Made by a program: the position numbers and the translations under genes
Notes under the pieces: model-generated
Databases searched by the model: none
Told to the model about the DNA's origin: nothing
The model's input: the letters and a program-made list of their open reading frames with translations, nothing else
Assembly: GCA_016215405.1 (NCBI GenBank)
Contig: JACRJQ010000005.1
Coordinates: forward strand, 11,560-75,559
From: Candidatus Tayloriibacteriota bacterium
Lineage (GTDB): Bacteria > Patescibacteriota > Minisyncoccia > Phycocordibacterales > UBA6065
Length of the DNA: 64,000 nt
Direction: 5' to 3'
In this document: positions 14,616-59,583 of the stretch, in pieces
Numbering within the stretch: position 1 is the stretch's first letter
How the letters are laid out: every line of letters starts with the position of its first letter

Positions 14616-14625
14616 CGAGGATGAG

Positions 14626-14648: not shown

Positions 14649-14714
14649 CGCGTCCGAGAGGCCGCGGCATTTACTTTGGCGCGCTCATGTAGTTCAGTAA
14701 TTTATAAACATTGA

Positions 14715-17352: not shown

Positions 17353-17356
17353 ATCT

Positions 17357-17887
17357 ATGAACAAGAAGAACGTCTTATTATTCTCTCTCGGCCTCATCGC
17401 CCTCGGCGTCCTAGGCAGGCTCGCGCCGCATCTTTGGAACGCGACCCCCCTCGGCGCGATCGCTCTGTTCGCGGCGTCCTATTTCGGGCTGCGCATGTCG
17501 CTTCCTGTGACGCTGTCGATCCTTTTCATAACGGATCTCGCCATCGGGTTCTATGATTGGAGGATCATGGCATCGGTCTACGCCTCGTTCGCCCTCGCCG
17601 CTATCCTAGGCAGGCTCACGTCCCGCTCGCGCGCGCCGTACAAGGTCGGCCTCGCGGTGCTCGGCTCTTCGACGCTCTTTTTCCTCGCGACCAACCTCGC
17701 GGTCTGGCAATTCGGGACGATGTACCCGCACACGCTCTCTGGCCTCGCAGACTCCTATATCGCCGCGCTCCCGTTCTTCAGAAACTCGATCATAGGGGAT
17801 TCCATGTACGCCCTAGCTCTTTTCGGGTCCTATGAGCTCTACCTCTCTTTGAGGCCCTCTGCCGCTAAAGGAGCCGTTGCAGCCTAG
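17357..17887 (+). CDS. Small polytopic membrane protein, ECF-transporter S-component/BtuM-like (putative cobalamin permease)
   Basis: 176 aa, ~6 TM, N-terminal WNATPLGAI motif reminiscent of ECF S-components; last gene of riboswitch operon. Confidence 0.45.
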   Translation: MNKKNVLLFSLGLIALGVLGRLAPHLWNATPLGAIALFAASYFGLRMSLPVTLSILFITDLAIGFYDWRIMASVYASFALAAILGRLTSRSRAPYKVGLAVLGSSTLFFLATNLAVWQFGTMYPHTLSGLADSYIAALPFFRNSIIGDSMYALALFGSYELYLSLRPSAAKGAVAA

Positions 17888-28629: not shown

Positions 28630-29322
28630 ATGTCTGCAGATATTGATCTATATGAAAAAGCAGCTGGTACCTATGATCGGCTTCAGATGCTTCGTCCTGA
28701 TTATTCGAGAGCAAAGACGATATTTTTAGACCTCGCCATCAAATATCTAAAAGGGAAGAAGGATATCTCCCTTGTAGATTTTTGCTCTGGTACAGGTGCG
28801 GATACTAAGCTTATCGCCGACCACCTTGAAATCGGTAATGCGATGCTTTTGGACATAAATGAAGAATTTCTCGAGATCGCGAAGAGGTCTAATATTCAGG
28901 CTAAGGTCGTGACCAAGACTGGAGATGTGCTCAGTCATAACTACCTACCTTCTGCCGATGCTGTCATCTCTATGTTCGCGTACCACCATGTTTCTGATGA
29001 CAGAAAAGCTTTATATGTTCAGAAGGCGAAGGATGCTTTGAAACCAGGAGGAATTCTTATTCTCGGAGAGATCTATATGCCTGACAAGAAGACGACTCTT
29101 GATTACTACAAGCAGTTGTACGCTTCGATTCCTCAGAAATCAGAGGAGCTCGAAAGTTTCCTAATGCAGACGGCCAGGAGCGAGGATTTCGAGTATAAAG
29201 TTTCGAGAGTGTTTGCGGAGAATCAATTCGCCGCGGGTGGTTTTACACTCCTTGAGTCCCGGAAGGTTTGGCCAAAAGACGGTTCTGATACCGGAACCTT
29301 CATAGAGATTTGGCGAAGTTAG
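28630..29322 (+). CDS. Class I SAM-dependent methyltransferase (in low-GC island)
   Basis: Motif I VDFCSGTGAD, motif post-I LLDIN, LKPGGILIL; GC content of 28590-29420 visibly lower (~40-45%) than flanks; TATACT-N6-ATG start. Confidence 0.8.
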   Translation: MSADIDLYEKAAGTYDRLQMLRPDYSRAKTIFLDLAIKYLKGKKDISLVDFCSGTGADTKLIADHLEIGNAMLLDINEEFLEIAKRSNIQAKVVTKTGDVLSHNYLPSADAVISMFAYHHVSDDRKALYVQKAKDALKPGGILILGEIYMPDKKTTLDYYKQLYASIPQKSEELESFLMQTARSEDFEYKVSRVFAENQFAAGGFTLLESRKVWPKDGSDTGTFIEIWRS

Positions 29323-29676: not shown

Positions 29677-30306
29677 ATGTCCATTCGGGCATCTGCTTTG
29701 CTCTCCTCTATGAAGGAGCTAAAGAGATTCTGCGCATTATGCATCACCCTTTTCGCCGTTCTTATGTTCGGTCGCACGCTCGCCATTTCTGCCTTCTATG
29801 CTCCCGAAACGGAGCTTTCCGCGGATCAGCCCCATCTGGAAGCCGCAGCCGCAGATTCGCGGTCATTGCCCGCGAGGCTCGCTATCCCGGCTTTGAGCAT
29901 CGATGCCCGTGTCGAGGCCGTCGGCGCGAATCACAGAGGCGATATGGCCTCGCCGTCTGATTACGACGACGTCGCATGGTACATGCACGGGACTATTCCC
30001 GGCGAACGCGGAAGCGCGGTGATCGCGGGACATCTCAATGACGGCCTAGGGCTTTCAGGGGCATTCGAGCGTCTCGGTGACGTTCGGATAGGCGACGACG
30101 TCCTCGTGGAGGACGAGGAGGGCCGGACGCTTCGCTTTGTCGTCGAGAGGATAGAGACATATGGCTACAGGTCCGTGCCCCTCAGAGAGGTTTTTGAAGG
30201 TGACGGCGCGCCGCGCCTCAATCTCATAACTTGCGCAGGGCGTTGGACATGGGACGGGAGGACGTATGACGAGCGGCTCGTCGTCTATACCCGACTCGCC
30301 GACTAA
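29677..30306 (+). CDS. Sortase family transpeptidase (class E/F-like)
   Basis: N-terminal TM, LAIPALSIDARV, catalytic His in VIAGH and Cys in LNLITC, Arg in RLVVY. Confidence 0.8.
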   Translation: MSIRASALLSSMKELKRFCALCITLFAVLMFGRTLAISAFYAPETELSADQPHLEAAAADSRSLPARLAIPALSIDARVEAVGANHRGDMASPSDYDDVAWYMHGTIPGERGSAVIAGHLNDGLGLSGAFERLGDVRIGDDVLVEDEEGRTLRFVVERIETYGYRSVPLREVFEGDGAPRLNLITCAGRWTWDGRTYDERLVVYTRLAD

Positions 30307-30456: not shown

Positions 30457-31305
30457 ATGAAGCGGGCCATCCTCTTATCTATCGCGCTCTTAGCCTTTTC
30501 CCTTGCGGAGGGCGCCTTCGCCGCGACCATAAGCGTGATGCCGGAGAAGCCGATACAGGGAGATCCGCTCATGATCAGGGTCGAGGGCCTCTCCGCCACG
30601 ACCACGGTCAAAAGCATCTCGTTCGACGGCAAGGCGCTCGGCATAGTCTCGTACACGGCACCGACGGCGTTCTACGGCATCGACATCAATAAGAAGGTGG
30701 GAACGTATGTAGTTAGGGCGACGCTTTCCGACGGGACGGCGATAGAGGAGGAGGTAAAGGTCGGCGCGAGGAGAAAGGCCGTCGCGCCCCTCGGCATCCC
30801 CGAGAAGCTCGGCGGGAATACCGCGACGTCGGCGGCCAAGCTCGTCGATACGCTCGCGATCGAGAACGCTTCGCTCCTCGGCCTGCGCACGGGCGGGCAT
30901 GCCTTTTGGACGAAGCCCTTTCGCTATCCGGTGTCAGACCCGATCGTGACGGACGAATACGGATATTCGCGAAAGACGGTGGGACAGACGATAACCCACA
31001 AGGGTACGGATTTCCGCGCGAAGGAAGGGACTCCCATCCTCGCGATGAATCGCGGCGTGGTACGCGTCGCGCGAGAAGGTCGCAACTACGGCAAGACCGT
31101 CGTCATCGATCATGGCTTGGGGCTTCAGACCTTCTACATGCATCTCTCGAAGATCAAGGTAAACGTAGGCGAATTGGTGCTTCCAGGGCAGGCGATTGGA
31201 CTTTCCGGCATGACCGGATACGCCGAATCGCCGCATCTGCACCTGACCGTCCGTATCAACGATATCTCGGTCGATCCTGTTACGTTCTTAGGATTCTTTA
31301 GATAG
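30457..31305 (+). CDS. M23 family metallopeptidase (LytM-like), secreted
   Basis: Signal peptide; HKGTDFRA...HLHLTV (HxxxD and HxH motifs). Confidence 0.85.
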   Translation: MKRAILLSIALLAFSLAEGAFAATISVMPEKPIQGDPLMIRVEGLSATTTVKSISFDGKALGIVSYTAPTAFYGIDINKKVGTYVVRATLSDGTAIEEEVKVGARRKAVAPLGIPEKLGGNTATSAAKLVDTLAIENASLLGLRTGGHAFWTKPFRYPVSDPIVTDEYGYSRKTVGQTITHKGTDFRAKEGTPILAMNRGVVRVAREGRNYGKTVVIDHGLGLQTFYMHLSKIKVNVGELVLPGQAIGLSGMTGYAESPHLHLTVRINDISVDPVTFLGFFR

Positions 31306-31632: not shown

Positions 31633-33084
31633 ATGCTTTCATTCATCAAACGCAAGAAGGTCATCATTATCATCATCGCGGTCGCCGTCATAGCGGTAGC
31701 CCTCGGCCTTAAGGCGCGCGGCAACGGGGGATACGAGACGACATCAGCGGTCCGCGGCGACCTCGTACGGACCGTGGAGCTCTCGGGCAAGGTCGTGCCC
31801 CAAGACGATGCCGACCTCGCCTTCGAGGTCACGGGCAGCGTCGCGAGGGTATACAAAAGGGTTGGCGACAGGGTCGCTGCGGGCGAGGTCATAGCCGAGC
31901 TCGACAAGGCGGCGACGAACGCCGACCTCATGAAGGCGCAGGCGGACCTCTCCGCGGCGAGAGCGGAGCTCGCAAAGCTCGAGGGGGGAGCGGACATAAA
32001 CGCAAAGATAGCGAGCTCCAGGAAATCGATCGTTCAGAGTATCCTCGACGCCTACACCGACGCCGACGACGCTATCTATAACAAGGTCGACCAATTCTTC
32101 GAGGACCCTCGCACCCCTAATCCGGAGATCATATTCTCCTTCGACGACTACGCGCTTCGAAACCGGGTGAATGCCGCTCGCGTCTCGGTGGGGAACACCC
32201 TCGCAGAATGGAGGGCGCGGACGGCCGACCTCTCGGTCACCACCTATGTCGAAGCCGACCTCGAAAGCGCAAAGGCGTCCCTCCGCGAGATATCCCTCTT
32301 CCTCGACGACGTGGCGAGGGCGGTCAACGCGTTCAAGCCCTCTACGTCCCTTACCCAGACGCAGATAGACAAATACCGCACCGACGTCGCGGCGGCGCGC
32401 CAGAACGTCAACGGAGCCTCTGCGACCCTCATCTCGGGCGAAGAGAGCCTCACTTCCGACGTCTCCGACGTGCCGGTCCAGGTCGCGCGGGTGCAAGCGG
32501 CAGAGGCGACCGTCGCCAACTACGCCTCGCGCCTCGCCAAGATGTCCTTGCGGTCGCCAATATCGGGCATCGTCTCGAAGCAGGACGCCAAGGCAGGGGA
32601 GGCTGTCTCGGCGAATACGGTCGTGGCGTCGGTCATAAGCGAAGGACTCAAGATGGAGGCGTACGTGCCTGAGGTGTCGGTCGCAGGCGTCGTCGAAGGC
32701 GCGCTGGCCGAAGTGACCCTCGACGCGTATGGCGACGACGAGCTTTTTAGGGCCAAGGTCGTGCACGTAGACCCTCGAGAGACCGTCCGCGACGGAGTCT
32801 CGACCTACAAGATCGACCTCGTATTCTCGGAATCAGACGAGCGCATCCGTCCCGGCATGACCACCAATATCGTCATAGAGACCATGAGGAAAGAAGGCGC
32901 GCTTCTCCTCCCCGAGAGAGCCGTCACGGGAGGCAAGGGGTCGAAGACCGTCCTCGTAAAGGATGCCGAGGGGAATATCTCTGAAAGGGAGATCCGCGAG
33001 GGCCTTACGGACACCAACGGCAATATCGAGATCCTCGAAGGGATCTCCGAGGCCGACACCGTCGTGCTTAATCCGAAGAAGTAA
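31633..33084 (+). CDS. HlyD-family periplasmic adaptor (MacA-like membrane fusion protein)
   Basis: N-terminal TM, coiled-coil hairpin, beta-barrel/lipoyl motifs (GKVVPQDDADLAFEVTGSVARVYKRVGDRVAAGEVIAELD). Confidence 0.8.
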   Translation: MLSFIKRKKVIIIIIAVAVIAVALGLKARGNGGYETTSAVRGDLVRTVELSGKVVPQDDADLAFEVTGSVARVYKRVGDRVAAGEVIAELDKAATNADLMKAQADLSAARAELAKLEGGADINAKIASSRKSIVQSILDAYTDADDAIYNKVDQFFEDPRTPNPEIIFSFDDYALRNRVNAARVSVGNTLAEWRARTADLSVTTYVEADLESAKASLREISLFLDDVARAVNAFKPSTSLTQTQIDKYRTDVAAARQNVNGASATLISGEESLTSDVSDVPVQVARVQAAEATVANYASRLAKMSLRSPISGIVSKQDAKAGEAVSANTVVASVISEGLKMEAYVPEVSVAGVVEGALAEVTLDAYGDDELFRAKVVHVDPRETVRDGVSTYKIDLVFSESDERIRPGMTTNIVIETMRKEGALLLPERAVTGGKGSKTVLVKDAEGNISEREIREGLTDTNGNIEILEGISEADTVVLNPKK

Positions 33085-33087
33085 CAG

Positions 33088-34335
33088 ATGCCGCAATTCA
33101 TCAGGATAGGATTCTTCCTCGCGCTCCGGCAGGTGCGCAGGGCGTCGAAATGGACCACGAGCCTCATCATATTCGTGATGACTCTGACGTTCCTCAACCT
33201 CGTCGTGGTCTCCGGTATCCTGGTGGGCCTCATAGAGGGCGCGGTCGAGGCGAACAAGACCTATTACACCTCGGATATCATAATCTCCAAGCTCGAGAAG
33301 AAAGACTATATAGAGCAGAGCCCTCTCGTCCTTAATATCATCCGCTCTATGCCCGAGGCCGAAGAGGTCTCTGCGCGCTATATCGAATCTGGCAGGGTAG
33401 AGGCGAACTACAAATCGGCGGCCAAGGAGGAGGAGATCGATTCCGCCGGAGGCACCTTCGCGGGCATCGACCCGGTGGCCGAAGAGAGGCTCACGGGAAT
33501 CTCCCGCTTCGTCATAGAAGGAGAATATCTCGAGCCTGACGATTACGACCAGGTCCTCGTAGGCGCGTACCTCCTCAAGAAATATTTTCCGGTCGAATCT
33601 CCCGGGTTCTCTACTCTCGATAACGTCGAGGTAGGGGACAAGATACGCGTCACCCTAGGCGACATCACCCGCGAGGTGCGCGTAAAGGGGATCGTGAAGT
33701 CGAAGGTGGACGAGCTCGCGTATCGCGTCTATTTCGTCGACAGGCAGTTCCGCGACCTCATCGGCCGCTCCGACTATAACGTCGACGAGATATCCGTGAA
33801 GATCCGCGAGGGCTCCGACGCCCTCGACGTAAAGGAGGCGCTTCTACGCGCGGGCGTCGGGCGCTATGCCCGAGTCCAGACGTTCGAGGATGCTCAGCCG
33901 AAATTCCTCAAGGATATAAAGGCGACCTTCGCCCTTCTCGGCAACATGATCAGCTCGATCGGCCTCGCCGTCGCGTCGATCACGATCTTCATCGTCATAT
34001 TCATAAACGCGATCACTCGCCGAAAGTTCATCGGCATATTGAAGGGTATCGGCATAAGCGGCAGGACGATCGAGGTCTCGTACATATTCCAGTCGTTCTT
34101 CTACGCGATCTGCGGGTCGGCGATCGGGCTCGCGCTCCTCTACGGCTTCCTGCAGCCCTATATCGCCGCTCATCCTATAAACTTCCCGTTCTCCGACGGC
34201 ATCCTCGTGGCCCCCGCCCTCGGCACGACGGTCAAGGTCGCCATCCTCGTGTTCACGACGATAATCGCCGGGTATATACCCGCGAGGATGATCGTCCGCA
34301 AGAATACACTCGATTCTATCCTAGGAAGAAACTGA
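33088..34335 (+). CDS. ABC transporter permease, FtsX/MacB-like
   Basis: 415 aa, N-terminal TM, large extracytoplasmic domain, C-terminal FtsX 3-TM bundle. Confidence 0.8.
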   Translation: MPQFIRIGFFLALRQVRRASKWTTSLIIFVMTLTFLNLVVVSGILVGLIEGAVEANKTYYTSDIIISKLEKKDYIEQSPLVLNIIRSMPEAEEVSARYIESGRVEANYKSAAKEEEIDSAGGTFAGIDPVAEERLTGISRFVIEGEYLEPDDYDQVLVGAYLLKKYFPVESPGFSTLDNVEVGDKIRVTLGDITREVRVKGIVKSKVDELAYRVYFVDRQFRDLIGRSDYNVDEISVKIREGSDALDVKEALLRAGVGRYARVQTFEDAQPKFLKDIKATFALLGNMISSIGLAVASITIFIVIFINAITRRKFIGILKGIGISGRTIEVSYIFQSFFYAICGSAIGLALLYGFLQPYIAAHPINFPFSDGILVAPALGTTVKVAILVFTTIIAGYIPARMIVRKNTLDSILGRN

Positions 34336-34336
34336 T

Positions 34337-35017
34337 ATGGAGCTCATCAAAGTAAAGAACCTCGTAAAGACATTCCAGAACGGCGATAAGGAGACGCACG
34401 TTCTTAAGGGCATCGATTTCTCGTGCGGAGACGGAGAGTTCATCGCCATCATGGGTCGTTCCGGAGCCGGCAAATCGACCTTCATGTATCAGATAAGCCT
34501 TCTCGACGAGCCGACTTCCGGCGAGATCGTCGTCTTCGATAAGAACACCCACTCCATGACCTCCGAAGAGAAGACGAAGTTCAGGCTCAACAAGCTCGGC
34601 TACGTGTTCCAAGACTACGCCCTCTTGCCCGACCTAACCGCCGTCGAGAACGTCGCCGTGCCCCTTATGATGCAAGGGAAGTCCAAGAGGGAGGCGTATA
34701 TCGAGGCGAAGGTCGCCCTCGAGCTCGTGGGCCTCGGACACCGGTTCGACAACCTGCCGTCCCAGATGTCGGGAGGCGAGCAGCAGCGCACCTCGATCGC
34801 GCGCGCCCTCGCGCACAAGCCTCGCATCCTCTTCGCCGACGAGCCGACCGCGAACCTCGACAACGAATCGTCGAAGACCATCATGGAGCTCTTCAAGCAG
34901 GTCCATGACTCGGGGCAGACCATAATCATGGTCACCCATGAAGAGGAGTATTCGAAGCTCGCGAAGAGGGTGATCCGGCTCGACGACGGTAGGATCATAA
35001 GCGATCAGAGGCAGTAG
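34337..35017 (+). CDS. ABC transporter ATP-binding protein (MacB/LolD-type)
   Basis: Walker A GRSGAGKST, Q-loop, signature LSGGEQQR, Walker B ILFADEPT. Confidence 0.9.
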   Translation: MELIKVKNLVKTFQNGDKETHVLKGIDFSCGDGEFIAIMGRSGAGKSTFMYQISLLDEPTSGEIVVFDKNTHSMTSEEKTKFRLNKLGYVFQDYALLPDLTAVENVAVPLMMQGKSKREAYIEAKVALELVGLGHRFDNLPSQMSGGEQQRTSIARALAHKPRILFADEPTANLDNESSKTIMELFKQVHDSGQTIIMVTHEEEYSKLAKRVIRLDDGRIISDQRQ

Positions 35018-35036: not shown

Positions 35037-35921
35037 ATGAAAGGCACGATGGATAAGAGAGGATTCACCCTCATAGAGCTCCTGGTCGTGATATCGATAG
35101 TCTCGCTCCTCTCGAGCGTCGCGCTCGCAAGCCTCAATTCCGCTCGCGATAGGGCGGACCTAGCCGCAGGGAAGAGGTTCGCTGCCCATGCCAGGTCGGC
35201 TTTGGCCGCGAAGTCGGCGAATAACGCGCCTTTGGTGTATCTGACCTTCGATTCGGGATCGGGTGCTTCGAGCATCCTCAATTCGGGCCTGCTCTCGGGA
35301 AGCGTGGGCACCTGGAACGCCTCTTTTCAAGCCGACAGCTCTCTTTACGGGACCGGCCAGCACATGAGAGGCCCGACCGCGACCCTCTCGTACCCTCTAG
35401 TCTGGGCCGAGAGCGGCGGGTCGCGCATCGGACAGGCCATATCGGCGCTCGATTTCACGATGTCTATCTGGTTTAACCCGAACGGGAGCTCCTACGCCTC
35501 TGCCTGTGGCGGGCCGTGCAGGATAATATCGAACGCTCAAGACGGCAACAACACCTCTATGCGCATAACCACATCGGGCGCTATAACGTTCCTCATAGAG
35601 GGCACGCAGGTGCTCTCCTACGCGCTCTCGCCGAAGGATTCCTGGTATCACCTCGCGTTCACCTCCGCGAACAGAGGGTCGACCATCGACGTCGCTCTCT
35701 ACGTCAACGGCAGACAGGTCGCCACGGCATCCCGAGCGACGCTCTCTTTTTCTGCTCCGGTCTCGAACATATCCGTCGGAGGCGCCTGCTGCTCGAGCTA
35801 TGTCCTCCCGAACGCCCTCTATGACGACGCGGCGTTCTTCGATAGCGCCCTCCTCGCGAGAGATATACGCGAGCTCTATCTGGCGGGCGGCGGAGATAGG
35901 GAGGCTTTCGCCCGCAGGTGA
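35037..35921 (+). CDS. Type IV pilin-like protein with C-terminal concanavalin A/LamG-like domain
   Basis: Prepilin signal KRGFTLIELLVVISIV (cleavage G|F, E+5); C-terminal LamG-like beta-sandwich (SIWFNPNG...WYHLAFT). Confidence 0.7.
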   Translation: MKGTMDKRGFTLIELLVVISIVSLLSSVALASLNSARDRADLAAGKRFAAHARSALAAKSANNAPLVYLTFDSGSGASSILNSGLLSGSVGTWNASFQADSSLYGTGQHMRGPTATLSYPLVWAESGGSRIGQAISALDFTMSIWFNPNGSSYASACGGPCRIISNAQDGNNTSMRITTSGAITFLIEGTQVLSYALSPKDSWYHLAFTSANRGSTIDVALYVNGRQVATASRATLSFSAPVSNISVGGACCSSYVLPNALYDDAAFFDSALLARDIRELYLAGGGDREAFARR

Positions 35922-35966: not shown

Positions 35967-36584
35967 ATGCAGGTCGCATTATCAGGCTATAACCATCGAA
36001 ACAGGATTATGAAAAATGCACTGCATTCGAACATCAGGATACTGGCGGCAGGCACCGTCATCGCGCTCATATCGGCCTTCGCGTTCCAGACGAACGCTCA
36101 AACGGTAACGGGCGGAGTGACGGGGACCCTTTCCGCTACGAGCACTTCGGCGACCTCGACCGAATTCGCGCTCTTGCAAGGAAGGATAGACGGCCTCGAA
36201 AGCGAGGTGGATGTCCTCCGAGCGGAGGTCGCGACTCTGCGGGCAACCGTGGCGCTGCTCATGGGGCAGATCGGCTCGGGCGGGACCGGCGGTAGCGGGA
36301 CCACCACGGCCACTACGAGCTCGTCCGTGAGCGTGAGCCCTCAGGGCGCTTCCGTGAGGGCCGGCACGTCCATCGACTTTTCAGGGCGAGGCTTCTGGTA
36401 TGACGAGCCGGTGAGGGTAACCGACGCATCGGGCGCCGTCGTAGGCACGGCCAGGGCGGACGGGGGCGGTAATTTCTCCACAGGGTCGCTGCCCGTATCT
36501 TCCGCGACGGGCAGCCGTTCTTACACCTTTACAGGGGGTTGGAGCGGCATGTCGAAGACGGTCTCATTTACAGTCACTCAGTAG
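35967..36584 (+). CDS. Hypothetical secreted protein (signal peptide, coiled-coil, Gly/Thr-rich beta domain)
   Basis: Likely start at internal MKNALHS (36009); signal peptide ending AFQTNAQ; heptad LESEVDVLRAEVATLRATVALL. Confidence 0.45.
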   Translation: MQVALSGYNHRNRIMKNALHSNIRILAAGTVIALISAFAFQTNAQTVTGGVTGTLSATSTSATSTEFALLQGRIDGLESEVDVLRAEVATLRATVALLMGQIGSGGTGGSGTTTATTSSSVSVSPQGASVRAGTSIDFSGRGFWYDEPVRVTDASGAVVGTARADGGGNFSTGSLPVSSATGSRSYTFTGGWSGMSKTVSFTVTQ

Positions 36585-51611: not shown

Positions 51612-51708
51612 ACCAGAAGATAAAGGCCGCCGAGCTCCGCTCGGCGGCCTTTATCGTTGGGGATAATCCCATGCCGTGCGATAAGAGATTTATGTGTACA
51701 ATAGAGAC

Positions 51709-52164
51709 ATGAAAAAGATATTCTTCGCAGCAATCATTCTCGCTTCTCTCGCCTTTACTCAGCAGGCGTTCGCTCAGAGCCCTAACCCGGCGGCCCAGCC
51801 CCTCGCTCCGGGAGCCCCTATGCCTGGCGCTCAGCAGAGCAACGTCCTTACGGTAGACACGAGCGCGTGCAAGGCGTTCACTACTCAGGGCGCGTCCGCG
51901 ATCTTCAGCTGCTTCCTCGGGTTCCTCGAATACATAAGCATCATCCTTCTCGCCCTCGCCGTCTTCTACACCATGTATGCGGCGTTCAAGCTCGTCCAGA
52001 GCGAAGAGGGCAGGGACGAGGCGAAGAAGACCATCCTCTACGGAATACTCGCCATCTTCATCATGACCTCGGTCTGGGGCCTCGTGAACATACTCGCGAA
52101 CACCTTCAGCATCACAGGGAGCGCCAAGGCGCCAGTCCAGCTCGTTGGATCGAGCAAGCCGTAG
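51709..52164 (+). CDS. TrbC/VirB2-like small pilin-type membrane protein (paralog 1)
   Basis: Signal peptide, two hydrophobic helices, conserved WGLVNIL; TGTACAAT-N6-ATG promoter-start arrangement. Confidence 0.6.
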   Translation: MKKIFFAAIILASLAFTQQAFAQSPNPAAQPLAPGAPMPGAQQSNVLTVDTSACKAFTTQGASAIFSCFLGFLEYISIILLALAVFYTMYAAFKLVQSEEGRDEAKKTILYGILAIFIMTSVWGLVNILANTFSITGSAKAPVQLVGSSKP

Positions 52165-52236
52165 TCCTATCTCTATAAAAAGCCCTCGGTCCTCTCGGAT
52201 CGGGGGCTTTGCTTTGCGCCTAAGGCGCGGACGAGG

Positions 52237-53334
52237 TCATCTCTCGCGGGTCCAGATCTGCATCTGTTGGTCGGAGACGAGGCATATCCGGTGTGCGTTC
52301 CTGTAGAAGTCGATCCTGCCGCTCGGAGGGACCGGAACGTCGACGGGATCTCGCATCCCCCAGAAGTAGTGGCGGACGAACGTCTTTCCCGATTGGACGA
52401 CGACCGAGCGTTCCGCTTCTGAGAGCGACATCTTGGGCGATTCCATGCCCGGGGCAACCTGGCGGTAGGTCCATCTCTCCTTGGACAAGGCGCTCTCTCC
52501 TTTGGAGAGGGTTTGTCCGCCGAAAGGGCTCTCGAGCGGCGCAGGGACCGAGGCTGTCGCCTGGGACACCCTCGGCGCGCTCGCGGCTGGGTTTACGGGG
52601 AGGGGAGGCGGAGGAGGAGTCGCGGCTTCGAGCTTCGCCTTTACGGCGCCAAGCTCCAAGACGAGGTCGCTTGCCGCCTTTCGGGCTTCGGCCCTTATCT
52701 CGCCGAGGCCGTCTCTCACGGTCCCGACCTCCTGCGCGAGGCTCGCAACGGCGCTCTCGATAGTCGCCGCCTTTTCGGCGTAAGGGACGATCGTGCCGAG
52801 GTTGTTGCTTATGGCTTTCGTCGCCTCGGCCTGAGCCCTCTGGACTTCCAGATGGCGGACGTCGGACTCTTCGATGCGCGCGAGGATCGAGCGGTCTTTC
52901 GACCGTTCCTCGGCAAGCCGTCTCGCCTGGGCCTCGATAGATCCCGTGATCTTTCTTGTCTGCTCCGCGAACCTCAGGTCGAGGTCCGTCGCGTCGCGGA
53001 GGACGCCGACGCTCGCATCGACCTTCCACAAGGCGAAGCAGACGGCCGTCGCGACGAGCGCGAACAGGAGAAAGAACGCGAAGAGCCACTTGCCGGGCGA
53101 CGGCGTCGTCTTGCGGATCTCGGCGATGGCGTCGTCTATATGCCGATTGACGTTGTTCGTGAACGCCATAAGCATCTTGCGGTGCTCGCTTATCGGGGTC
53201 TCCTCCAGGATCTCGGGATCCTTGTCGGAGCTTGCGGGAACAGACGCGCTTGCGGAAGCCGTCGTGGCCGGACCGGCCGTAGCCGGGTCGGCGGCGCTGG
53301 CAGAAGCCTGCGCGGTAGGAGTATTGGATTTCAT
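52237..53334 (-). CDS. Hypothetical membrane protein with coiled coil and Pro-rich linker
   Basis: Start taken at MKSNTPTAQ; one TM (WLFAFFLLFALVATAVCFALW), long coiled coil, conserved-looking C-terminal domain. Confidence 0.45.
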   Translation of the reverse strand: MKSNTPTAQASASAADPATAGPATTASASASVPASSDKDPEILEETPISEHRKMLMAFTNNVNRHIDDAIAEIRKTTPSPGKWLFAFFLLFALVATAVCFALWKVDASVGVLRDATDLDLRFAEQTRKITGSIEAQARRLAEERSKDRSILARIEESDVRHLEVQRAQAEATKAISNNLGTIVPYAEKAATIESAVASLAQEVGTVRDGLGEIRAEARKAASDLVLELGAVKAKLEAATPPPPPLPVNPAASAPRVSQATASVPAPLESPFGGQTLSKGESALSKERWTYRQVAPGMESPKMSLSEAERSVVVQSGKTFVRHYFWGMRDPVDVPVPPSGRIDFYRNAHRICLVSDQQMQIWTRER

Positions 53335-53522
53335 GACAGGGGCAGACCGGATTTCGTTTTGATAGAACAGCAAAAGGCATGACAGGCGAAAGCCTCCCGA
53401 TGCACTGTTCCAACCTATATACGTCGGCGGGAGCGCAAATGTATCATTCGCGCCGCAGAGGACGCTCGGCACGGCCCTTCGGATGTGAACAAAGGAGAGA
53501 GGAACGGATGTATAATAGGGAT

Positions 53523-54050
53523 ATGTTCTCAGATCCAAGGCATAACATAGAGCAGCTCGGCCTCTCTGACGGGAAGGTCGTCGCGGACCTCGGGACCGGT
53601 TCGGGATTCTACGCTATCGAGGCGGCCCGCGCGGTCGCTCCTATGGGCAAGGTCTACGCCGTCGACATCCAGCGCGGGCTCCTCGATAGGCTTAAGGCGG
53701 AGGCGAACAGGCAGCATGTGAAAAACGTCGAGATCGTCGCCGGCGACCTCGAGAAGGTCGGGGGCTCTAAGGTCCGCGAGTCGTCTTGCGACGCCGTCAT
53801 CGCCTCTAACATACTTTTCATGATCGAAGACAGGAAATCTTTCCTTCTCGAGGCGAAAAGGATATTGAAGCAGGGAGGCAGGCTCCTCCTCGTCGACTGG
53901 TCCGCGTCGTTCTCCCAGATGGGCCCTCACCCCGAGCACGTGGTCTATAAAGACGACGCCCTTAAGCTCGCGAGGTCGATAGGGCTCGAGTTCGACCGCG
54001 AGATCCACGCGGGCAGCCACCATTACGGCCTCATATTCAGGAAAGCGTAG
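53523..54050 (+). CDS. Class I SAM-dependent methyltransferase
   Basis: Motif I VADLGTGSGFYA, VDIQ, LKQGGRLLLVDW; alternative start ATG 53508 (SD-like GGAGAG 8 nt upstream) possible. Confidence 0.75.
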   Translation: MFSDPRHNIEQLGLSDGKVVADLGTGSGFYAIEAARAVAPMGKVYAVDIQRGLLDRLKAEANRQHVKNVEIVAGDLEKVGGSKVRESSCDAVIASNILFMIEDRKSFLLEAKRILKQGGRLLLVDWSASFSQMGPHPEHVVYKDDALKLARSIGLEFDREIHAGSHHYGLIFRKA

Positions 54051-54111
54051 GCCAGGCTGGGGATGCGGAGGGCGCGCGAATCCTATATCATAAGGCTGTA
54101 GACGTCTTTTC

Positions 54112-55401
54112 ATGTCCCGATTCCAGACTATATTTCTCGGCATACTCATCGTCCTCGGCGTAGCGGGGGCCGTCGTTTTCGCGACCTCGAAGAATAGGGG
54201 CACCGAGAGCGCGACGCCCGTCGTCATGTGGGGCACGTTCCCGACGACCATGGTCGACGGGCTCCTTTCCGAAGCGAATCTCAACTACAAAGACACGGTG
54301 AACGTCTCGTATATCGAGAAGCCTTACGCCTCGTTCGAAAGCGAGCTCATATCCGCCCTTGCCCGCGGACAAGGTCCCGATATGGTCCTTATACCGCAAG
54401 ACCTCATCGTAAAGCAGCTCGACAAATACTACATCGTCCCGTTCGAGAGCTACTCCGAGCGCGATTTTAGGAACAGCTTCATCCAGGAAGGGGAGCTCTT
54501 CCTCGCGTCGACGGGCATCATAGGGTTCCCCCTTGCGATCGACCCGATGGTCATGTATTGGAACAGGGACATACTTACGAACGAAGGCGTATCTTTACCG
54601 CCTGCGTCGTGGACGGAATTCTTCTCTCTGGCGCCGAAGATAGTCAAAAAGGACGGGAACGGCAATATCAGCCAGGCGATCCTCGCGTTCGGCGAGTTTA
54701 GGAACGTCTCTCATGCCAAGGAGATATTATCCCTCCTCGCCATGCAGGCGGGGACCCCCATAGTGGCGAAAGCGTCTGCTGGAGGCTATCAGAGCGTATT
54801 CTCGGCGCGAGGGTCCGGGCTCGTGCCGGGCGAGGAGGCGGTCTCCTATTTCACGGAGTTCTCCAATCCGAGCAAGGCGTCGTATTCTTGGAACAGGTCG
54901 CTTCCTCTCGACAGGACTGCTTTCCTCGCGGGACGGCTCGCGTTCTATTTCGGGTACGCGAGCGAGCTTACGTCTTTGCGCGCGGCGAACCCGAACCTCA
55001 ACTTCGACGTAGCGATGGTGCCGCAGGTAGCGGGCAAGAAGCTCACTTTCGGCAGGATCCACGGCATCGCGCTCTTGAAGTCGTCTCCTAACGTCGCTTC
55101 GGCCTATCTCGCGGCGACCACTCTCGTCTCGTCGCCTCTGCAGCAAACCTGGGTCGCTAAATCGGGGTATCCCCCGGTCCGTCGAGACCTCCTCTCCGTC
55201 ATTCCGGGAGACGCCTATAAGTCCGTCTTCTATCAGAGCGCGCTCGTCTCCTCGGCGTGGCTCGACCCGTATCGCGAGGCGACTGACGGGATATTCCTAA
55301 GGCTCGTCGAGGGGGTCACCTCGGGCAGGCTGCGCGTCTCGGAAGCCGTCTCCGCGGCATCGACCGAGATACAGAGCCTTCTCCTTAACACGAACATATG
55401 A
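54112..55401 (+). CDS. Extracellular solute-binding protein (ABC SBP family 1-like), membrane-anchored
   Basis: N-terminal anchor then bilobal SBP fold; no cognate permease/ATPase adjacent; ATGA overlap with next gene. Confidence 0.7.
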   Translation: MSRFQTIFLGILIVLGVAGAVVFATSKNRGTESATPVVMWGTFPTTMVDGLLSEANLNYKDTVNVSYIEKPYASFESELISALARGQGPDMVLIPQDLIVKQLDKYYIVPFESYSERDFRNSFIQEGELFLASTGIIGFPLAIDPMVMYWNRDILTNEGVSLPPASWTEFFSLAPKIVKKDGNGNISQAILAFGEFRNVSHAKEILSLLAMQAGTPIVAKASAGGYQSVFSARGSGLVPGEEAVSYFTEFSNPSKASYSWNRSLPLDRTAFLAGRLAFYFGYASELTSLRAANPNLNFDVAMVPQVAGKKLTFGRIHGIALLKSSPNVASAYLAATTLVSSPLQQTWVAKSGYPPVRRDLLSVIPGDAYKSVFYQSALVSSAWLDPYREATDGIFLRLVEGVTSGRLRVSEAVSAASTEIQSLLLNTNI

Positions 55402-55898
55402 AAAAAATAACGAAGCTCTCGGCCTTTATATTCGTCCTCGCGGCGATCCTTCTGCCTCAGGCGAGAGAGGCATATGCCCAACCTGCCCAATCGGTGGGAA
55501 GCGATAACCCGGCGAACGTAGACGCCGACCCGAACCGGGCCGACGGAACGAAATTCCAGCTCGTGACCTGTACAGGCGTCGTCGACCCTCGTACGGGGAA
55601 GGGGGTCGAATGCGACTATAACCAGCTCATATCTACCGCGTATCGCGTCATCAAGTTCGTGCTCTACATGCTCATTCCGATACTCCTCGGCATGGTGCTC
55701 TTTACGGGCTGGAAATTCCTCACCGCCGGAGGCGACACCATGAAGCTCGAGAGCGCCAAGAAGATGCTCAAGCCCGTGTTCGTCGGTCTCGTGCTCATCT
55801 TCGGCGCTTGGCTTTTCGTATACACCGTTCTCGACAAGCTCCTCGCTCCGTCGATAGGCGAGATACAGAAGTCGAGCATAGTGCCACAAACAAAATAA
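55398..55898 (+). CDS. TrbC/VirB2-like pilin-type protein (paralog 2)
   Basis: Signal peptide, two TM helices, KKMLKPVFVGLVLIFGAW. Confidence 0.55.
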   Translation: MKKITKLSAFIFVLAAILLPQAREAYAQPAQSVGSDNPANVDADPNRADGTKFQLVTCTGVVDPRTGKGVECDYNQLISTAYRVIKFVLYMLIPILLGMVLFTGWKFLTAGGDTMKLESAKKMLKPVFVGLVLIFGAWLFVYTVLDKLLAPSIGEIQKSSIVPQTK

Positions 55899-55899
55899 T

Positions 55900-56337
55900 A
55901 TGAAAAAAACAATCCTTTCAGTGCTGGCCGCCGCGATCGTAGCGATACCTTCGTACGGCATAGTCGAGTTCGGATACGCCCAAGCCGACAAGCCCGTCAC
56001 CACCACGACCGACAAGCCGGTGACGACCGTGCCGGACAAGACCGTGACGACGGCCCCTTCGCCCGTCATGTCGACCTTGCCCAATCCCCTCAAGGTCAAG
56101 AGCATCTCCGAGCTCTTCTACGACATCGTCGATTTCGTCATAAGCCTCTCGTACGTCGTCATCGCGTTCTTCTTCCTCCTCTCGGGCTTTAAGTTCGTCA
56201 CGGCGCAAGGAAGCGACGACAAGCTCGGCGAGGCAAAGAAGATGTTCTTCAATACGGTGATCGGGGCGCTCATCATCGTCGGCGCCAATACGATAGTCGC
56301 CGTCGTGAGGAGCATCATAGAGAATCTCCAAAAATAA
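55900..56337 (+). CDS. TrbC/VirB2-like pilin-type protein (paralog 3)
   Basis: Signal peptide, TTTDKPVTT repeats, two TM helices. Confidence 0.55.
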   Translation: MKKTILSVLAAAIVAIPSYGIVEFGYAQADKPVTTTTDKPVTTVPDKTVTTAPSPVMSTLPNPLKVKSISELFYDIVDFVISLSYVVIAFFFLLSGFKFVTAQGSDDKLGEAKKMFFNTVIGALIIVGANTIVAVVRSIIENLQK

Positions 56338-56747
56338 TGAAAAAGATACTGATAGCGGGAATGATCGCGGTCGTAGCCCTGATGGGCCCACTGTCGTTCG
56401 CGCACGCCCAGACCCAGAGCGGCGGTACGTGCGAGAGCCTAAAGACGAACGGCCTCGGCGGCGTCGTGAACTGCGTCATCCTCCTCTTAGACTACGCGGC
56501 GATCGCCATCCTCGCCCTTTCGGTCCTCTATACGATGTGGGGCGCCTTCCTCATGGCCTCGAGCGAAGAGAAGAGGCAGCAGGGAAAGGACATCGTCATA
56601 TTCGGCATAATCGGGATATTCGTGATGACTTCGATATGGGGCCTCGTCAACATATTGCAGAGCACCTTCGGGCTCGAGGGTGGCCCTATAACGCCCACGA
56701 AGATCGACAGGACTCCGGTGAATATCCAGAACCCGTTGAGGTCCTAG
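56337..56747 (+). CDS. TrbC/VirB2-like pilin-type protein (paralog 4)
   Basis: Signal peptide; VLYTMWGAFLMASSEEKRQQGKDIVIFGIIGIFVMTSIWGLVNILQSTF. Confidence 0.6.
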   Translation: MKKILIAGMIAVVALMGPLSFAHAQTQSGGTCESLKTNGLGGVVNCVILLLDYAAIAILALSVLYTMWGAFLMASSEEKRQQGKDIVIFGIIGIFVMTSIWGLVNILQSTFGLEGGPITPTKIDRTPVNIQNPLRS

Positions 56748-56847
56748 CCATCGGGATATCCCCATAACGGGGCACAAAGCGGTTTTTCCCTGGTATAATC
56801 AAGGGGCAAAAGCTTTTTTGCAGCATTATAAGGATTTATCACAGCAT

Positions 56848-57213
56848 ATGAAAAAATTCGGCATTGTAGCGTCGGTTCTCGCGTTCCCATACCTCGCTTT
56901 CGCTCAGGTATCCGGCAACGTATCGAACCTCGACGGTATATTCCGCTTTATAAAGAGGCTTCTCGACACGGTACTTCCGCTCATCATAGCGCTTACCGTC
57001 GTCTGGTTCGTCTGGGGACTCTTCCGCATGTTCACCGCCTCCGACGAGGAGAAGAAGGAAAAGGCGAAGTCGACCATCATCTACGGTGTCATCGCTCTCT
57101 TCGTGATGATCTCGATCTGGGGACTCGTCAACATCCTCTATAACACGTTCCAGCTCGACTCGACGAACCGCTCGAACCAGGTCCAGCAGCAGCTTCCTAA
57201 CCTTCCGAGCTAA
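56848..57213 (+). CDS. TrbC/VirB2-like pilin-type protein (paralog 5)
   Basis: VVWFVWGLFRMFTASDEEKKEKAKSTIIYGVIALFVMISIWGLVNILYNTF. Confidence 0.6.
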   Translation: MKKFGIVASVLAFPYLAFAQVSGNVSNLDGIFRFIKRLLDTVLPLIIALTVVWFVWGLFRMFTASDEEKKEKAKSTIIYGVIALFVMISIWGLVNILYNTFQLDSTNRSNQVQQQLPNLPS

Positions 57214-57231
57214 GCGATAGCTCAAGGTATT

Positions 57232-57573
57232 ATGAACAGCTTTAAAGCGCTTCTCGTACCGCTTCTTTCGCTCGCGACCCTGGTCGCCGGCCTAAGCGGA
57301 CCGCTCGCTCTCGAGGCAGCCCCCGTGAACGCTTTGGAGCTTCGGCCTGTGCAAAAGCTTTTCGATCTCGTCATCAACCCTGTCGTAAGGCTCCTCTTCG
57401 CCGCAGCGGTGTTCTACTTCGTCTACGGCATCTGGAGCTACGTAAGGAAATCCGACGATCCGTCGGAGAGGGCGCAGGGGGGTAAGCACATCCTCTACTC
57501 GACCATAGGCCTCTTCATCATGATCTCCGTCTGGGGCATCATCGCGGTGATACAGAGGACGGTCGGACAATAG
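57232..57573 (+). CDS. TrbC/VirB2-like pilin-type protein (paralog 6)
   Basis: VFYFVYGIWSYVRKSDDPSERAQGGKHILYSTIGLFIMISVWGIIAVIQ; followed by terminator GACCGCCG-CATC-CGGCGGTC+TTTCGTTTT (57585-57617). Confidence 0.55.
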   Translation: MNSFKALLVPLLSLATLVAGLSGPLALEAAPVNALELRPVQKLFDLVINPVVRLLFAAAVFYFVYGIWSYVRKSDDPSERAQGGKHILYSTIGLFIMISVWGIIAVIQRTVGQ

Positions 57574-57691
57574 GTTCGAGAGCGAAGACCGCCGCATCCG
57601 CGGCGGTCTTTCGTTTTAGGAGATGGGGGATAAAAAAGGGACCCTTCGAGCTTGCGCTCTAGGGTCCCTCGCAGTCGCGGGCTTGGGGCTA

Positions 57692-58108
57692 TTAGGCCTT
57701 CGGCGCGCGAGTGATGATCTTGAGCCAGACAGAGTCTGACTTAAATCTCACTTCCTTCCAGTTCGGCGGCAACTGGATGCCGTCGGGATACCTCGCGGTC
57801 TCCCGATACTCCTCCTTGGAGAGAGGGTGGACGAGGGTGAGCTCGGCGACCAGGTCAGGGGGGCCCGACACGGTCACGATCTCTTCCTCGCTCCTCACGA
57901 TCGCTCGGGATGATTTCCCGGGCGCCGCCCATGTCTCGCGCTCTACGAGGCGAGACGCGGCTGGAGCCTTGTTCCCAGGCCCTTCTGTCTTCATCTTCGA
58001 TCTGACGACGGACGTGACTCCGTATCCGATCCAAGCGAGGAAGCAGATGGTGAGAAGCGCCACTCCCGGTCCATGCAGAGCAGTCCTTTTTTTCGCTGTC
58101 GCGCTCAT
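57692..58108 (-). CDS. Hypothetical membrane-anchored protein
   Basis: 138 aa, one N-terminal TM; 4-nt overlap with upstream gene. Confidence 0.4.
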   Translation of the reverse strand: MSATAKKRTALHGPGVALLTICFLAWIGYGVTSVVRSKMKTEGPGNKAPAASRLVERETWAAPGKSSRAIVRSEEEIVTVSGPPDLVAELTLVHPLSKEEYRETARYPDGIQLPPNWKEVRFKSDSVWLKIITRAPKA

Positions 58109-59583
58109 GGCCGACCTCCTTGTTGCTGACGGTTTTGGTTCCGGTTCCGGTTTTGGTTATGGCGGTTTTTGTTCTTGCCGCCACCGCCGCCACCGCCTGA
58201 TCCGGGGAGCTTGATTCCTGCCTTTTGGGCCGCCGCGACGAGAAGTCCGATGACCTCGTCCGCTTTGCCCTTGCTATCGATCGTGACGATAAGCTCGTCG
58301 CGGCTGATGTCGCCTTCCTGCGCCTGCACGGCTCGGAGCGCCTCTTTGGCGTCGAGACCGTGTTGACCGAGAAGGGTGATCAGATTTTTCGCCCGCTGAG
58401 CTTGCCGCCGCATATCCATATCCTGCGCTTTCGACTTGCCGATCTCGATCTTCAGGGCCTCGCGGGCCTCGATGATCGCTTTGTTCGTCGGCATCACCTC
58501 TTCGGTGATGACGGCGAGCACGTCGGCGCCGGATTCGGGACCATAGGTATTGTCGATAGCTTCGGAGATGTCGTGAGGTATTTCGCTCCCGGCGTCTTCC
58601 GCGTTACCGGCGATTACTATGATGTCCTTGTTCGGAATCGTCTTTTCGCGCATGTCGACCGCGATGTAATCCATGAACGGCAGGCACCAGTGATAGCCCT
58701 CGTCGGCGACGGCGTTCGAGACGCCGAGGCTTTCGATGCGTCGACCGAGGATCGTGAGGACACCCGCGTGTCCCGTATCGATCTTTTGCCAGCCGATCAT
58801 CGCGATCGCCGTCATCGTTGCCATAAGTGTGATCGTGGGAAAGACTCCCCAATCGGTCACCGCTGGCACCGCGAGGACGAACACGAGGACGAACGCGAGG
58901 CACGCGATAAACGACATCCAGGGCTGGATGGCTGGCTTCACAGCCGCCATCTGGCCTCCGGCGTCATTTTTCGCGAACGCTTCGTGGATGCACTTCCCGA
59001 TTTTCGTCTTTTGGGCGATGAGGGGATCCATCTCAACCCGTGAAGCGATCGCTCGCGTCAGGGAGGTTGAGTAGGCCACGATGGTCCGTTCGATCTGCTC
59101 GATCCCGCCAAAGCTCAGTGCTTTGAAAGGGTCTTTGATCCGATAGCGGATAGTCTGGTCGATCCGGACCTCGGCAGAGCCGGGGTCCTGGTCTTCCAGA
59201 TCCATCTCGCTCTCGTCCGTTTCTGGAGGTTGAGGCGGAGGCGTGGTCGATCCAAGCCCCATGTTTTCGAGCTCCTGGTTCGTTACCAGGGTCTTCGCTT
59301 GCGGAGGCGTCGAGGCAGGGGCTTGCGCTCCCGCCGCAGGCGCCGTCGAGGTCGCTGCAGGCTGTCCTGCGGCGGCCACTGTCGGTTGAGTTCCGGCCGA
59401 GGGTTCGGTCGGGGCTTGAGGGTTAGAGGGCATGTTCGGGATGTTGAGGTTCTGGGTCAGTGGTTTTTCAGTTCGAGGAGAGGCGGCCGGATGGGCTGCC
59501 TCGGTCCCGCTTTTCTCCGTGGTGATACCCACAGAGGAGAGCGGAGGAAAGCCACGTCGCCGCGGCTCGTTCGGTTGTGTCAT
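58105..59583 (-). CDS. SPFH/band-7-like membrane protein with low-complexity N-terminus and poly-Gly/Asn-Arg tail
   Basis: SPFH-like segments (EVRIDQTIRYRIKDPFKALSF...; IDTGHAGVLTILGRRIESLGVSNAVADEGYHWCLPFMDYIAV), TM, C-terminal GSGGGGGGGKNKNRHNQNRNRNQNR. Confidence 0.45.
   Translation of the reverse strand: MTQPNEPRRRGFPPLSSVGITTEKSGTEAAHPAASPRTEKPLTQNLNIPNMPSNPQAPTEPSAGTQPTVAAAGQPAATSTAPAAGAQAPASTPPQAKTLVTNQELENMGLGSTTPPPQPPETDESEMDLEDQDPGSAEVRIDQTIRYRIKDPFKALSFGGIEQIERTIVAYSTSLTRAIASRVEMDPLIAQKTKIGKCIHEAFAKNDAGGQMAAVKPAIQPWMSFIACLAFVLVFVLAVPAVTDWGVFPTITLMATMTAIAMIGWQKIDTGHAGVLTILGRRIESLGVSNAVADEGYHWCLPFMDYIAVDMREKTIPNKDIIVIAGNAEDAGSEIPHDISEAIDNTYGPESGADVLAVITEEVMPTNKAIIEAREALKIEIGKSKAQDMDMRRQAQRAKNLITLLGQHGLDAKEALRAVQAQEGDISRDELIVTIDSKGKADEVIGLLVAAAQKAGIKLPGSGGGGGGGKNKNRHNQNRNRNQNRQQQGGRP

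Follow-up and report, generated by a model that had tools for sequence, protein, structure and literature searches.

In 2025, 3,035 Patescibacteria genomes were surveyed, and VirB2-like proteins were described from 1,948 VirB4-containing assemblies, together with 441 'VirB2 arrays' of 2-11 genes with an average identity of 25%; in about 40% of the assemblies with VirB2 such genes were also located away from virB4 (PMC12102498). Furthermore, a 2025 review describes six structurally similar, sequence-divergent VirB2-like pilins in the locus of Southlakia epibionticum that encodes its type IV secretion system (T4SS), which are essential in transposon sequencing, and speculates on a pilus-like conduit for them (PMC12857230). 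Because arrays have been published for Patescibacteria, this kind of array is already known; single polypeptides with many hairpins and linkage to a solute-binding protein (SBP) are not mentioned in PMC12102498. Here we analyzed a related locus in a 64-kb piece (the window) of the chromosome of a Candidatus Taylorbacteria metagenome-assembled genome (MAG), class Paceibacteria of the Patescibacteria (candidate phyla radiation, CPR). Five consecutive genes for VirB2-like pilins (p1-p5) follow the gene of a membrane-anchored SBP, and a sixth (p0) lies 3.2 kb upstream, a tandem array in the sense of at least two PF18895 genes, adjacent or with one other gene in between, of low mutual identity (about 25%). 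We put at roughly 50% the probability that the locus represents the patescibacterial VirB2-like pilin array as it occurs in Paceibacteria and that its products form one hetero-oligomeric envelope structure, with the SBP as partner and driven by a T4SS.

An initial annotation, made from the sequence alone, had described six small proteins with a leader and two hydrophobic helices, on which the open reading frames (ORFs, all on the plus strand), the family matches and the hydropathy profiles agree. All six match the T4SS_pilin family PF18895 (E-values from 2e-13 to 9e-6, Table 1), five of them above the gathering score of 26.6 bits and p1 0.4 bit under it. Their proposed membership of the VirB2-like pilin superfamily is thereby borne out, as it is by p4, which passes the cut-off of NF045849, the NCBIfam model for the 'pilin-like conjugal transfer protein' of Mycoplasma integrative and conjugative elements (ICEs), with 42.1 bits (cut-off 40). 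Searches with PF04956 (TrbC/VirB2) and CPR-type pilin models had also been proposed; PF18895 succeeded, but the PF04956 gathering score of 27.9 bits was reached by none of the six (p2, the most canonical-like paralogue, comes near with 26.4 bits and E = 8.3e-6; p1 scored 13.7 bits; the remaining four gave no significant match). Among the pilins of six genomes, 31/31 match PF18895 and 7/31 match PF04956 at E < 0.01, and the NCBI label for the orthologues is 'pilin'. Hydropathy profiles of all six show a hydrophobic N-terminal leader, two hydrophobic helices and a loop of 12-19 residues rich in K/R and D/E. The WGLVNIL/WGIIAV segment, initially thought to be common to all six, is present in helix 2 of p0, p3, p4 and p5 and degenerate in p1 and p2. 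A pair of cysteines 14 residues apart precedes helix 1 in p0, p1 (C58 and C72, conserved) and p3 (C32 and C46), and a Thr/Pro-rich spacer is found behind the leader of p2. In the AlphaFold2 (AF2) model of p4 (81 homologues, pLDDT 72.9), a leader helix at residues 4-21 is followed by a helical hairpin at residues 28-63 and 67-100.

The same DNA is present in the Logan assembly of SRR12113407, and p4 is identical to the NCBI protein HZA81_01475, encoded on a contig of 144,751 bp. Two starts were revised: the GTG of p0 at 51694 is probably five codons too early and the start at 51709 is preferred, and the TTG at 56818 is probably not the true start of p4, for which a protein of 121 residues is called by NCBI as well as Logan. 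A profile built from the six pilins detected no seventh copy in the six-frame translation of the window (next best E = 1.1), and a profile search for other pilins of the same MAG gave no further HZA81_ locus tags among the 120 matches listed. The real genes of the window have a characteristic codon-position pattern, with a guanine-plus-cytosine (GC) content of about 0.75-0.8 at third positions (GC3) and about 0.4 at second positions (GC2), which the numerous long antisense ORFs lack. Chance similarity or spurious ORFs as an account of the six pilins are ruled out by this pattern, the significant Pfam matches and purifying selection. The six were also considered as pilins of a type IV pilus; since none of them matches N_methyl (PF07963), the model of the N-terminal G/FxxxE motif at which prepilins are cleaved and methylated, this identity was rejected.

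To place the paralogues, 88 related loci were compared, namely 8 annotated contexts and 80 species-level loci, the latter being the best 80 from a scan with an SBP alignment (one genome per GTDB species, profiles built in this analysis); 58 of the arrays were classified with type-specific profiles. In 56/58 species-level arrays the types follow one another as 1, 2, the p3/p4 class with two to five copies, and 5; p1 is first and p2 second in 56/58 each. Five pilin domains per array were counted in 25 loci, six in 19 and seven in 11. In an all-against-all BLAST, the best match of each window paralogue in the loci L004, L006 and L008, and mostly in L011 too, was the pilin at the same array position. 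Such same-position orthologues are 33-64% identical across genomes (45-54% for p3), as against 18-39% among the window paralogues, the same range as for the identities to p0. Positional orthologues of p1 were found in all four of these loci. Type 5 stands at the array end in most relatives, where it usually has 83-93 residues and no leader. Against the closest relative, L094, the pilins of the window have dN/dS values of 0.16-0.28, similar to the 0.13 of the SBP; the methyltransferase upstream of the SBP has 0.18. These values are rough because dS (0.6-1.3) is near saturation. The best conserved paralogue is p4, 84% identical to its L094 orthologue. The place given to p0 in a set of six was not upheld as part of the conserved set: its best cross-genome match is p3 of L006 (47%), and it is found in L094 and missing from L004, L008, L010, L011, L012 and L013. 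On its sequence, p0 classifies as an extra p3-type copy, lineage-specific and common only to the window and L094.

Pilins of different types also occur as fusions. A profile search revealed many proteins of 190-330 residues from Nomurabacteria, Vogelbacteria and other Paceibacterota in which two or three pilin domains stand behind one leader, including a p2-type and a p4-type domain in one polypeptide. In an exhaustive profile search of the pilin family (36,832 representatives), single-leader 'poly-pilins' with 6, 7, 10, 11 and 16 different hairpin units and up to about 32 predicted transmembrane helices were found (e.g., P0284 with 606 residues, P0289 with 1775 residues, P0292, P0294, P0392 and P0324). 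One poly-pilin cluster holds an archaeal protein, from Candidatus Altiarchaeales. Positional orthology, purifying selection and natural fusions support that the five pilin types are non-redundant, that is, distinct conserved types kept under purifying selection.

Around p4 orthologues (40-64% identity), and around fused pilins of Vogelbacteria and another Minisyncoccia lineage, a gene block is kept in the order S1, Lactamase_B_3, a small ORF, GyrA, a variable spot, a methyltransferase of 175 residues, an SBP of 430 residues and five pilin domains. On the opposite strand it continues with a gene of 138-345 residues and an SPFH-like gene of 364-400 residues, and further on with RbfA, IF2 and DUF4446. 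The scan of one genome per GTDB species detected a relative of the SBP in no fewer than 580 species. Where enough downstream sequence was available, the SBP is followed at a distance of at most 700 nt by a pilin domain in 73/74 loci, which supports the initial view that the anchored SBP belongs with the pilins. Across the 88 related loci the succession of methyltransferase, anchored SBP and pilins recurs; the methyltransferase is directly upstream of the SBP in 72/80 loci, GyrA is upstream in 58/62 and IF2 downstream in 24/36. The SBP-pilin adjacency persists where the gyrA (4/62) or methyltransferase (8/80) neighbour is lost, and it is the most constant adjacency of the locus. Many of the GTDB representative MAGs with this Paceibacteria-type locus (L016, L017, L022, L025 and others) are titled 'uncultured Candidatus Saccharibacteria bacterium', probably a mislabel at the submitter level.

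The SBP is anchored by an uncleaved N-terminal transmembrane helix (residues 3-26) without a lipobox cysteine. Its AF2 model (pLDDT 91.8, pTM 0.86) has a two-lobed MalE-like fold; the best PDB profile match is the mannobiose-binding protein 4r9f (2e-17), and the top Foldseek matches (E about 1e-21 to 2e-23) are proteins that bind maltodextrin, manno-oligosaccharides or beta-1,2-gluco-oligosaccharides. No permease or ATPase partner (BPD_transp, ABC_tran) was found next to the SBP in the window or in the 8 annotated loci, and the sole ATP-binding cassette (ABC) system of the window is a MacB-type HlyD/FtsX/ABC set at 31633-35017. The window neighbourhood is made up of housekeeping genes (MurJ, LepA, class II ribonucleotide reductase, ValRS, TsaD, FtsZ/FtsA, HisRS, S1, GyrA, RbfA and IF2), the GC content is even along the window (55-61%) and that of the genome is 57%. 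Origin from a mobile element or ICE is ruled out by the uniform GC content, the class-wide housekeeping neighbours and the lack of integrase and relaxase genes.

From the methyltransferase to p3 the genes lie on one strand with minimal gaps. The SBP stop overlaps the p1 start by 4 nt (ATGA), and a start/stop overlap is likewise present in L004 and L008; p1 and p2 are 1 nt apart and p2 and p3 overlap by 1 nt, followed by gaps of 100 nt between p3 and p4 and 18 nt between p4 and p5. Five of the pilins are consecutive, as had been stated, but translational coupling applies to the first three junctions only, because of the two wider gaps at the end. A single coupled string of five pilins also conflicts with an intergenic element in the p3/p4 gap (Table 1), where a conserved terminator-like stem and an extended -10 divide p1-p3 from p4-p5. 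The composite of the TATCCCCA box, the stem and TGGTATAAT occurs once in the window (0.00 expected by chance), and in an alignment it stands directly 5' of the p4 equivalent in 11 other loci. TGnTATAAT was found in 9/57 spacers ahead of the penultimate pilin, compared with at most 1/57 for any other spacer. The element is likely a promoter internal to the array, serving p4-p5, perhaps with a regulator site. This suggests two transcription units and makes p4, the best conserved copy, a candidate for the major subunit. Hairpins that resemble terminators stand behind p0 (52188-52208) and p5 (57591-57607), and Rfam and tRNA scans of the window yielded ordinary tRNAs only.

Table 1. Positions and assignments of the pilin genes, the intergenic element and the neighbouring genes in the window (coordinates refer to the window).
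Feature	Position	Strand	Remarks
p0, extra VirB2-like pilin paralogue, type p3	51709..52164	+	PF18895 29.9 bits, E=5.9e-7
Coiled-coil single-pass membrane protein, 365 aa (Logan contig call)	52237..53334	-	no significant Pfam/NCBIfam family
Small class I S-adenosylmethionine (SAM)-dependent methyltransferase, 180 aa, opens the conserved block	53508..54050	+	Methyltransf_31/11/25, E down to 6e-19
Membrane-anchored SBP	54112..55401	+	PF13416 6e-20, PF01547 6e-16
p1, VirB2-like pilin type 1, largest ectodomain	55398..55898	+	PF18895 26.2 bits, E=8.7e-6; dN/dS 0.22
p2, VirB2-like pilin type 2	55900..56337	+	PF18895 32.8 bits; dN/dS 0.28
p3, VirB2-like pilin type 3 (p3/p4 class)	56337..56747	+	PF18895 30.4 bits; dN/dS 0.16
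Putative promoter element between p3 and p4	56757..56799	+	TATCCCCA box, short GC stem and T-run, extended -10 TGGTATAAT
p4, VirB2-like pilin type 4	56848..57213	+	PF18895 50.5 bits, E=2e-13; dN/dS 0.20
p5, VirB2-like pilin type 5, array end	57232..57573	+	PF18895 37.9 bits
X, membrane protein, 138 aa, beta-rich C-terminal part	57692..58108	-	no Pfam/NCBIfam match; convergent with the array
SPFH/Band 7-like membrane protein, Gly/Asn/Arg-rich tail	58105..59583	-	ORF 492 aa; gene call from 59262 = 385 aa

In the reading we prefer, the locus would be a vertically inherited chromosomal operon and not a mobile element, with the methyltransferase, the anchored SBP, p1, p2 and p3 in one unit and p4-p5 in another that is transcribed from the conserved internal promoter. 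The pilins would be exported or inserted via a Sec/YidC route and the leader cleaved, so that the mature protein would be a helical hairpin with both termini outside and the charged loop in the cytoplasm, which is the membrane form of VirB2-type pilins. The types p1, p2, p3/p4 and p5 would be different parts of one assembly, a short VirB2-type pilus or an envelope conduit, where p4 and the p3/p4 class would provide the bulk subunit. Specialised subunits in single copy would be p1, with a putative disulfide in its ectodomain, p2, and p5, which in most cases lacks a leader. The co-translated SBP would act as a partner, either binding glycans of the host surface as a receptor or adhesin or capturing sugars that come from the host, as the operon structure suggests. 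Assembly would most likely be carried out by a VirB4/VirB6/VirB3-type machine that is encoded elsewhere, near dnaA, in most Paceibacteria. The hetero-oligomer, the major and minor roles, the T4SS dependence and the SBP role are what we infer from these data, and the earlier suggestion of a surface appendage of an episymbiont is plausible.

Several observations weigh against this reading. To our knowledge, cells of Paceibacteria have never been observed to carry a pilus. Structure prediction, which had been proposed as a check, yielded the helical hairpin of p4, but comparison with known structures was uninformative: a Foldseek search with the hairpin found no significant PDB match and a PDB profile search found no pilin. 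The near-saturated dS given above also makes the dN/dS values rough. As noted initially for VirB4 and VirD4, no such ATPase is among the window ORFs, and VirB4, VirB6, VirB3 and VirD4 were found neither in the 64-kb window nor within 10 kb of the array in the 88 related loci; likewise, large VirB4-like proteins with Walker A motifs were found in none of the 80 species-level loci or 8 annotated contexts, and a type IV pilus ATPase was not found among the window ORFs. The SBP adjacency could stem from strong general synteny, gyrA, IF2 and RbfA being conserved neighbours too. In favour of a T4SS link, most Paceibacteria have VirB4 according to the survey data that cover the class, and the array-bearing genomes of L038 and L070, the two for which a cross-check was possible, scored VirB4-positive there (PMC12102498). 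Against such a link, Table S3 of the survey gives, for those Paceibacteria genomes that could be checked, a single separate PF18895 gene two genes from virB4 and not the array (PMC12102498), and so the secretion system may already own a pilin. Of 23 Taylorbacteria MAGs in the part of Table S1 that was covered, 9 scored VirB4-negative, including all four of about 50% GC (49_60, 51_15, 50_130 and 50_120; the window genome has 57%) (PMC12102498), which may reflect a clade-level loss or incomplete bins.

On the choice between a T4SS-built pilus and a membrane complex independent of any T4SS there is evidence on both sides. In the latter, the cytoplasmic membrane would contain a ring or pore built from the five hairpin types, comparable to the rings of two-helix c-subunits, which would work directly with the SBP as a new binding-protein-dependent uptake or sensing system that needs no VirB4. 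The array is never beside virB4 in the 88 loci, the Paceibacteria virB4 locus has a PF18895 gene of its own and many Taylorbacteria MAGs lack detectable VirB4 in the tabulated survey data just cited. The SBP gene has neither a permease nor an ATPase gene beside it and is coupled in translation to p1, and the single-leader polyproteins of 6-16 hairpins resemble polytopic membrane proteins and not extractable pilins. Such a device seems unlikely to us all the same: VirB4 negatives in draft MAGs may mean missing contigs, neither an energy source nor channel-like polar residues were identified, the transporter would be without precedent, and in Saccharimonadia, Microgenomatia and Mycoplasma ICEs the family goes together with T4SS loci. 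This occurrence in the T4SS loci of other classes, along with the VirB4 of most Paceibacteria and of the two array-bearing genomes above, speaks for a T4SS-built pilus. It is quite unlikely that the SBP and the five-type hairpin set make up a self-contained, VirB4-free organelle core to Paceibacteria, a hetero-oligomeric tube or ring, represented in relatives by the covalently concatenated poly-pilins of 6-16 hairpins, with which these metabolically minimal cells would capture or import host-derived glycans; if true, this would add a novel type of conduit that depends on a binding protein and is made from pilin hairpins.

The pilins could also form a unit on their own, with the methyltransferase, the SBP, X and the SPFH-like protein as unrelated housekeeping neighbours in a very stable gene order. 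The stretch S1, Lactamase_B_3, gyrA, RbfA, IF2 and DUF4446 is indeed syntenic across the same genomes, the methyltransferase matches only generic models, and the SPFH-like protein and X are barely conserved. We regard this explanation as doubtful, as the SBP-pilin adjacency (73/74) outlasts the loss of gyrA or the methyltransferase, the SBP stop overlaps the p1 start not only in the window but also in L004 and L008, the SBP stands without a transporter partner in its vicinity, and the genes from the methyltransferase to p3 are co-directional with minimal gaps. Very improbable in our view are interchangeable variants of a major pilin serving antigenic variation or host-strain matching, as proposed for Bartonella/Anaplasma and suggested for Patescibacteria (PMC12102498). 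The low identity among paralogues (18-39%), the varying number of p3/p4-class copies between species (2-5), the extra p0 in the window clade and the variable ectodomain spacers would fit such variants. However, types and order are conserved over class-level divergence, similarity is higher between orthologues than between paralogues, purifying selection acts on all copies, those of the window show no sign of recent duplication or gene conversion among them, and fusions join different types in one polypeptide.

The genes around the array were assigned much as in the initial annotation (a SAM methyltransferase, a coiled-coil membrane protein and a protein with a partial Band_7 match and a Gly/Asn/Arg-rich tail), but the coiled-coil protein could not be retained as a member of the cluster. 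It is 28% identical to its L094 equivalent (dN/dS about 0.41) and has no similarity to the inserts of L006 and L008; a role as conserved partner is ruled out by this fast evolution and by the lack of likeness to the inserts of other relatives, and on sequence it is probably a lineage-specific insert outside the conserved module. Insertions vary in the interval that separates gyrA from the methyltransferase (51612-53507): it is occupied here by p0 and the coiled-coil gene and in relatives by unrelated genes, in L006 by an ORF of 427 residues and in L008 by a cytidylate kinase and an ORF of 196 residues, and is empty in L010-L013. On NCBIfam, the methyltransferase gave generic ArsM/UbiE-like core matches only, far under the cut-offs.

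Downstream, X and the SPFH-like gene overlap by 4 nt at the stop of the latter, and the position of X is filled by a poorly conserved gene of 138-345 residues in L004, L006, L008, L010, L011 and L013. The SPFH-like protein scored 30.7 bits on Band_7 (PF01145, gathering score 23.6), with residues 267-321 aligned to only positions 2-50 of the 176 of the profile, and had no NCBIfam match. In L008, L010 and L013 the position holds a gene of 364-400 residues with Band_7 matches, and the sequences are barely alignable between relatives. The gene thus keeps its position, but its sequence can hardly be recognised from one relative to the next, and a functional tie is at most possible. The SPFH-like gene and X are associated with the array by position only, and the link of the former is weak. 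The SPFH-like ORF has a Pro/Ala/Thr-rich N-terminus skipped by gene callers, hydrophobic segments in mid-protein and a GGGGGGGKNKNRHNQNRNRNQNRQQQGGRP tail. The stretch ahead of its transmembrane region resembles the later part of the SPFH domain, which could reflect a rearrangement or permutation.

Several other genes of the window deserve mention. The MacB-type HlyD/FtsX/ABC ATPase operon is followed at 35037-35921 by a type IV pilin-like gene with N_methyl and a lectin-like Laminin_G_3 domain, behind which lies an ORF of 205 residues without family (35967-36584). A possible cobalamin-related cluster at 11274-17887 is made up of an ATP-cone ribonucleotide reductase of class II, which is B12-dependent (11801-14458, minus strand), a P-loop protein of 173 residues (11274-11795, minus strand), DUF4430 (14904-15410), DUF6580 (17357-17887) and a protein of 651 residues without family that has only faint squalene-cyclase-like repeats (15397-17352). 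The SAM methyltransferase gene at 28630-29322 has a GC3 of 0.47, compared with 0.70-0.84 in its neighbours, which suggests a recent foreign origin. Additionally, a sortase gene (29677-30306) adjoins that of a secreted M23 peptidase (30457-31305).

Patescibacteria account for a large share of bacterial diversity, and their host attachment and feeding are largely obscure. Paceibacteria keep an array related to the published ones in their core genome, linked to a sugar-binding protein instead of a secretion ATPase, which suggests that the published array counts in Paceibacteria are too low. What appears new here is the conserved operon linked to an SBP, with a fixed type composition, a predicted internal promoter and no secretion ATPase nearby, and with fused poly-pilins of 2-16 units in relatives, a variant that has apparently not been described. 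If independent of a T4SS, it would represent a new class of envelope device; otherwise it would be a refinement of a known system.

Among the known systems, the TrbC/VirB2/TraA pilins of the T-pilus and F-pilus (PF04956) resemble the window pilins in their long leader, their pair of hydrophobic helices, the short basic loop on the cytoplasmic side and the outside location of both termini. The canonical diderm systems have one major pilin, whereas the window locus has five conserved types, in an organism without outer membrane, VirB5, VirB7, VirB9 or VirB10. In Bartonella and Anaplasma, several diverged virB2 copies also stand in tandem, but these are thought to be variable surface antigens and lie in or beside a complete virB locus, while the window copies are conserved positional orthologues, kept by purifying selection and located away from virB4. 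The Mycoplasma ICE pilin (NF045849, Mbov_0395 family) belongs to PF18895 as well and forms a two-helix hairpin of about 70 residues; there, a single gene lies beside T4SS genes in a conjugative element, whereas the window has five to six diverged copies in a core operon and no conjugation genes. A looser likeness is offered by the c-subunits of rotary ATPases, two-helix hairpins with a polar loop that pack side by side in a ring and occur singly, as fusions of two or three hairpins and as long concatemers. This is an analogy only, illustrating what concatenation usually implies, as the two have no sequence relationship and unrelated functions, and no conserved ion-binding carboxylate was identified in the pilin hairpins. 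The array of S. epibionticum ML1 (Saccharimonadia) has about 5-6 tandem small PF18895 proteins that are structurally alike and about 25% identical, and in both cases a chromosomal array with no relaxase nearby belongs to a monoderm, ultrasmall and probably host-dependent bacterium. The Southlakia array lies within a T4SS locus with VirB1/3/4/6/8/D4-like genes, of which the window has none within 51 kb upstream and 6 kb downstream; unlike it, the window array shares its operon with the genes of the methyltransferase and the anchored SBP, keeps its types in a fixed order and carries a predicted internal promoter.

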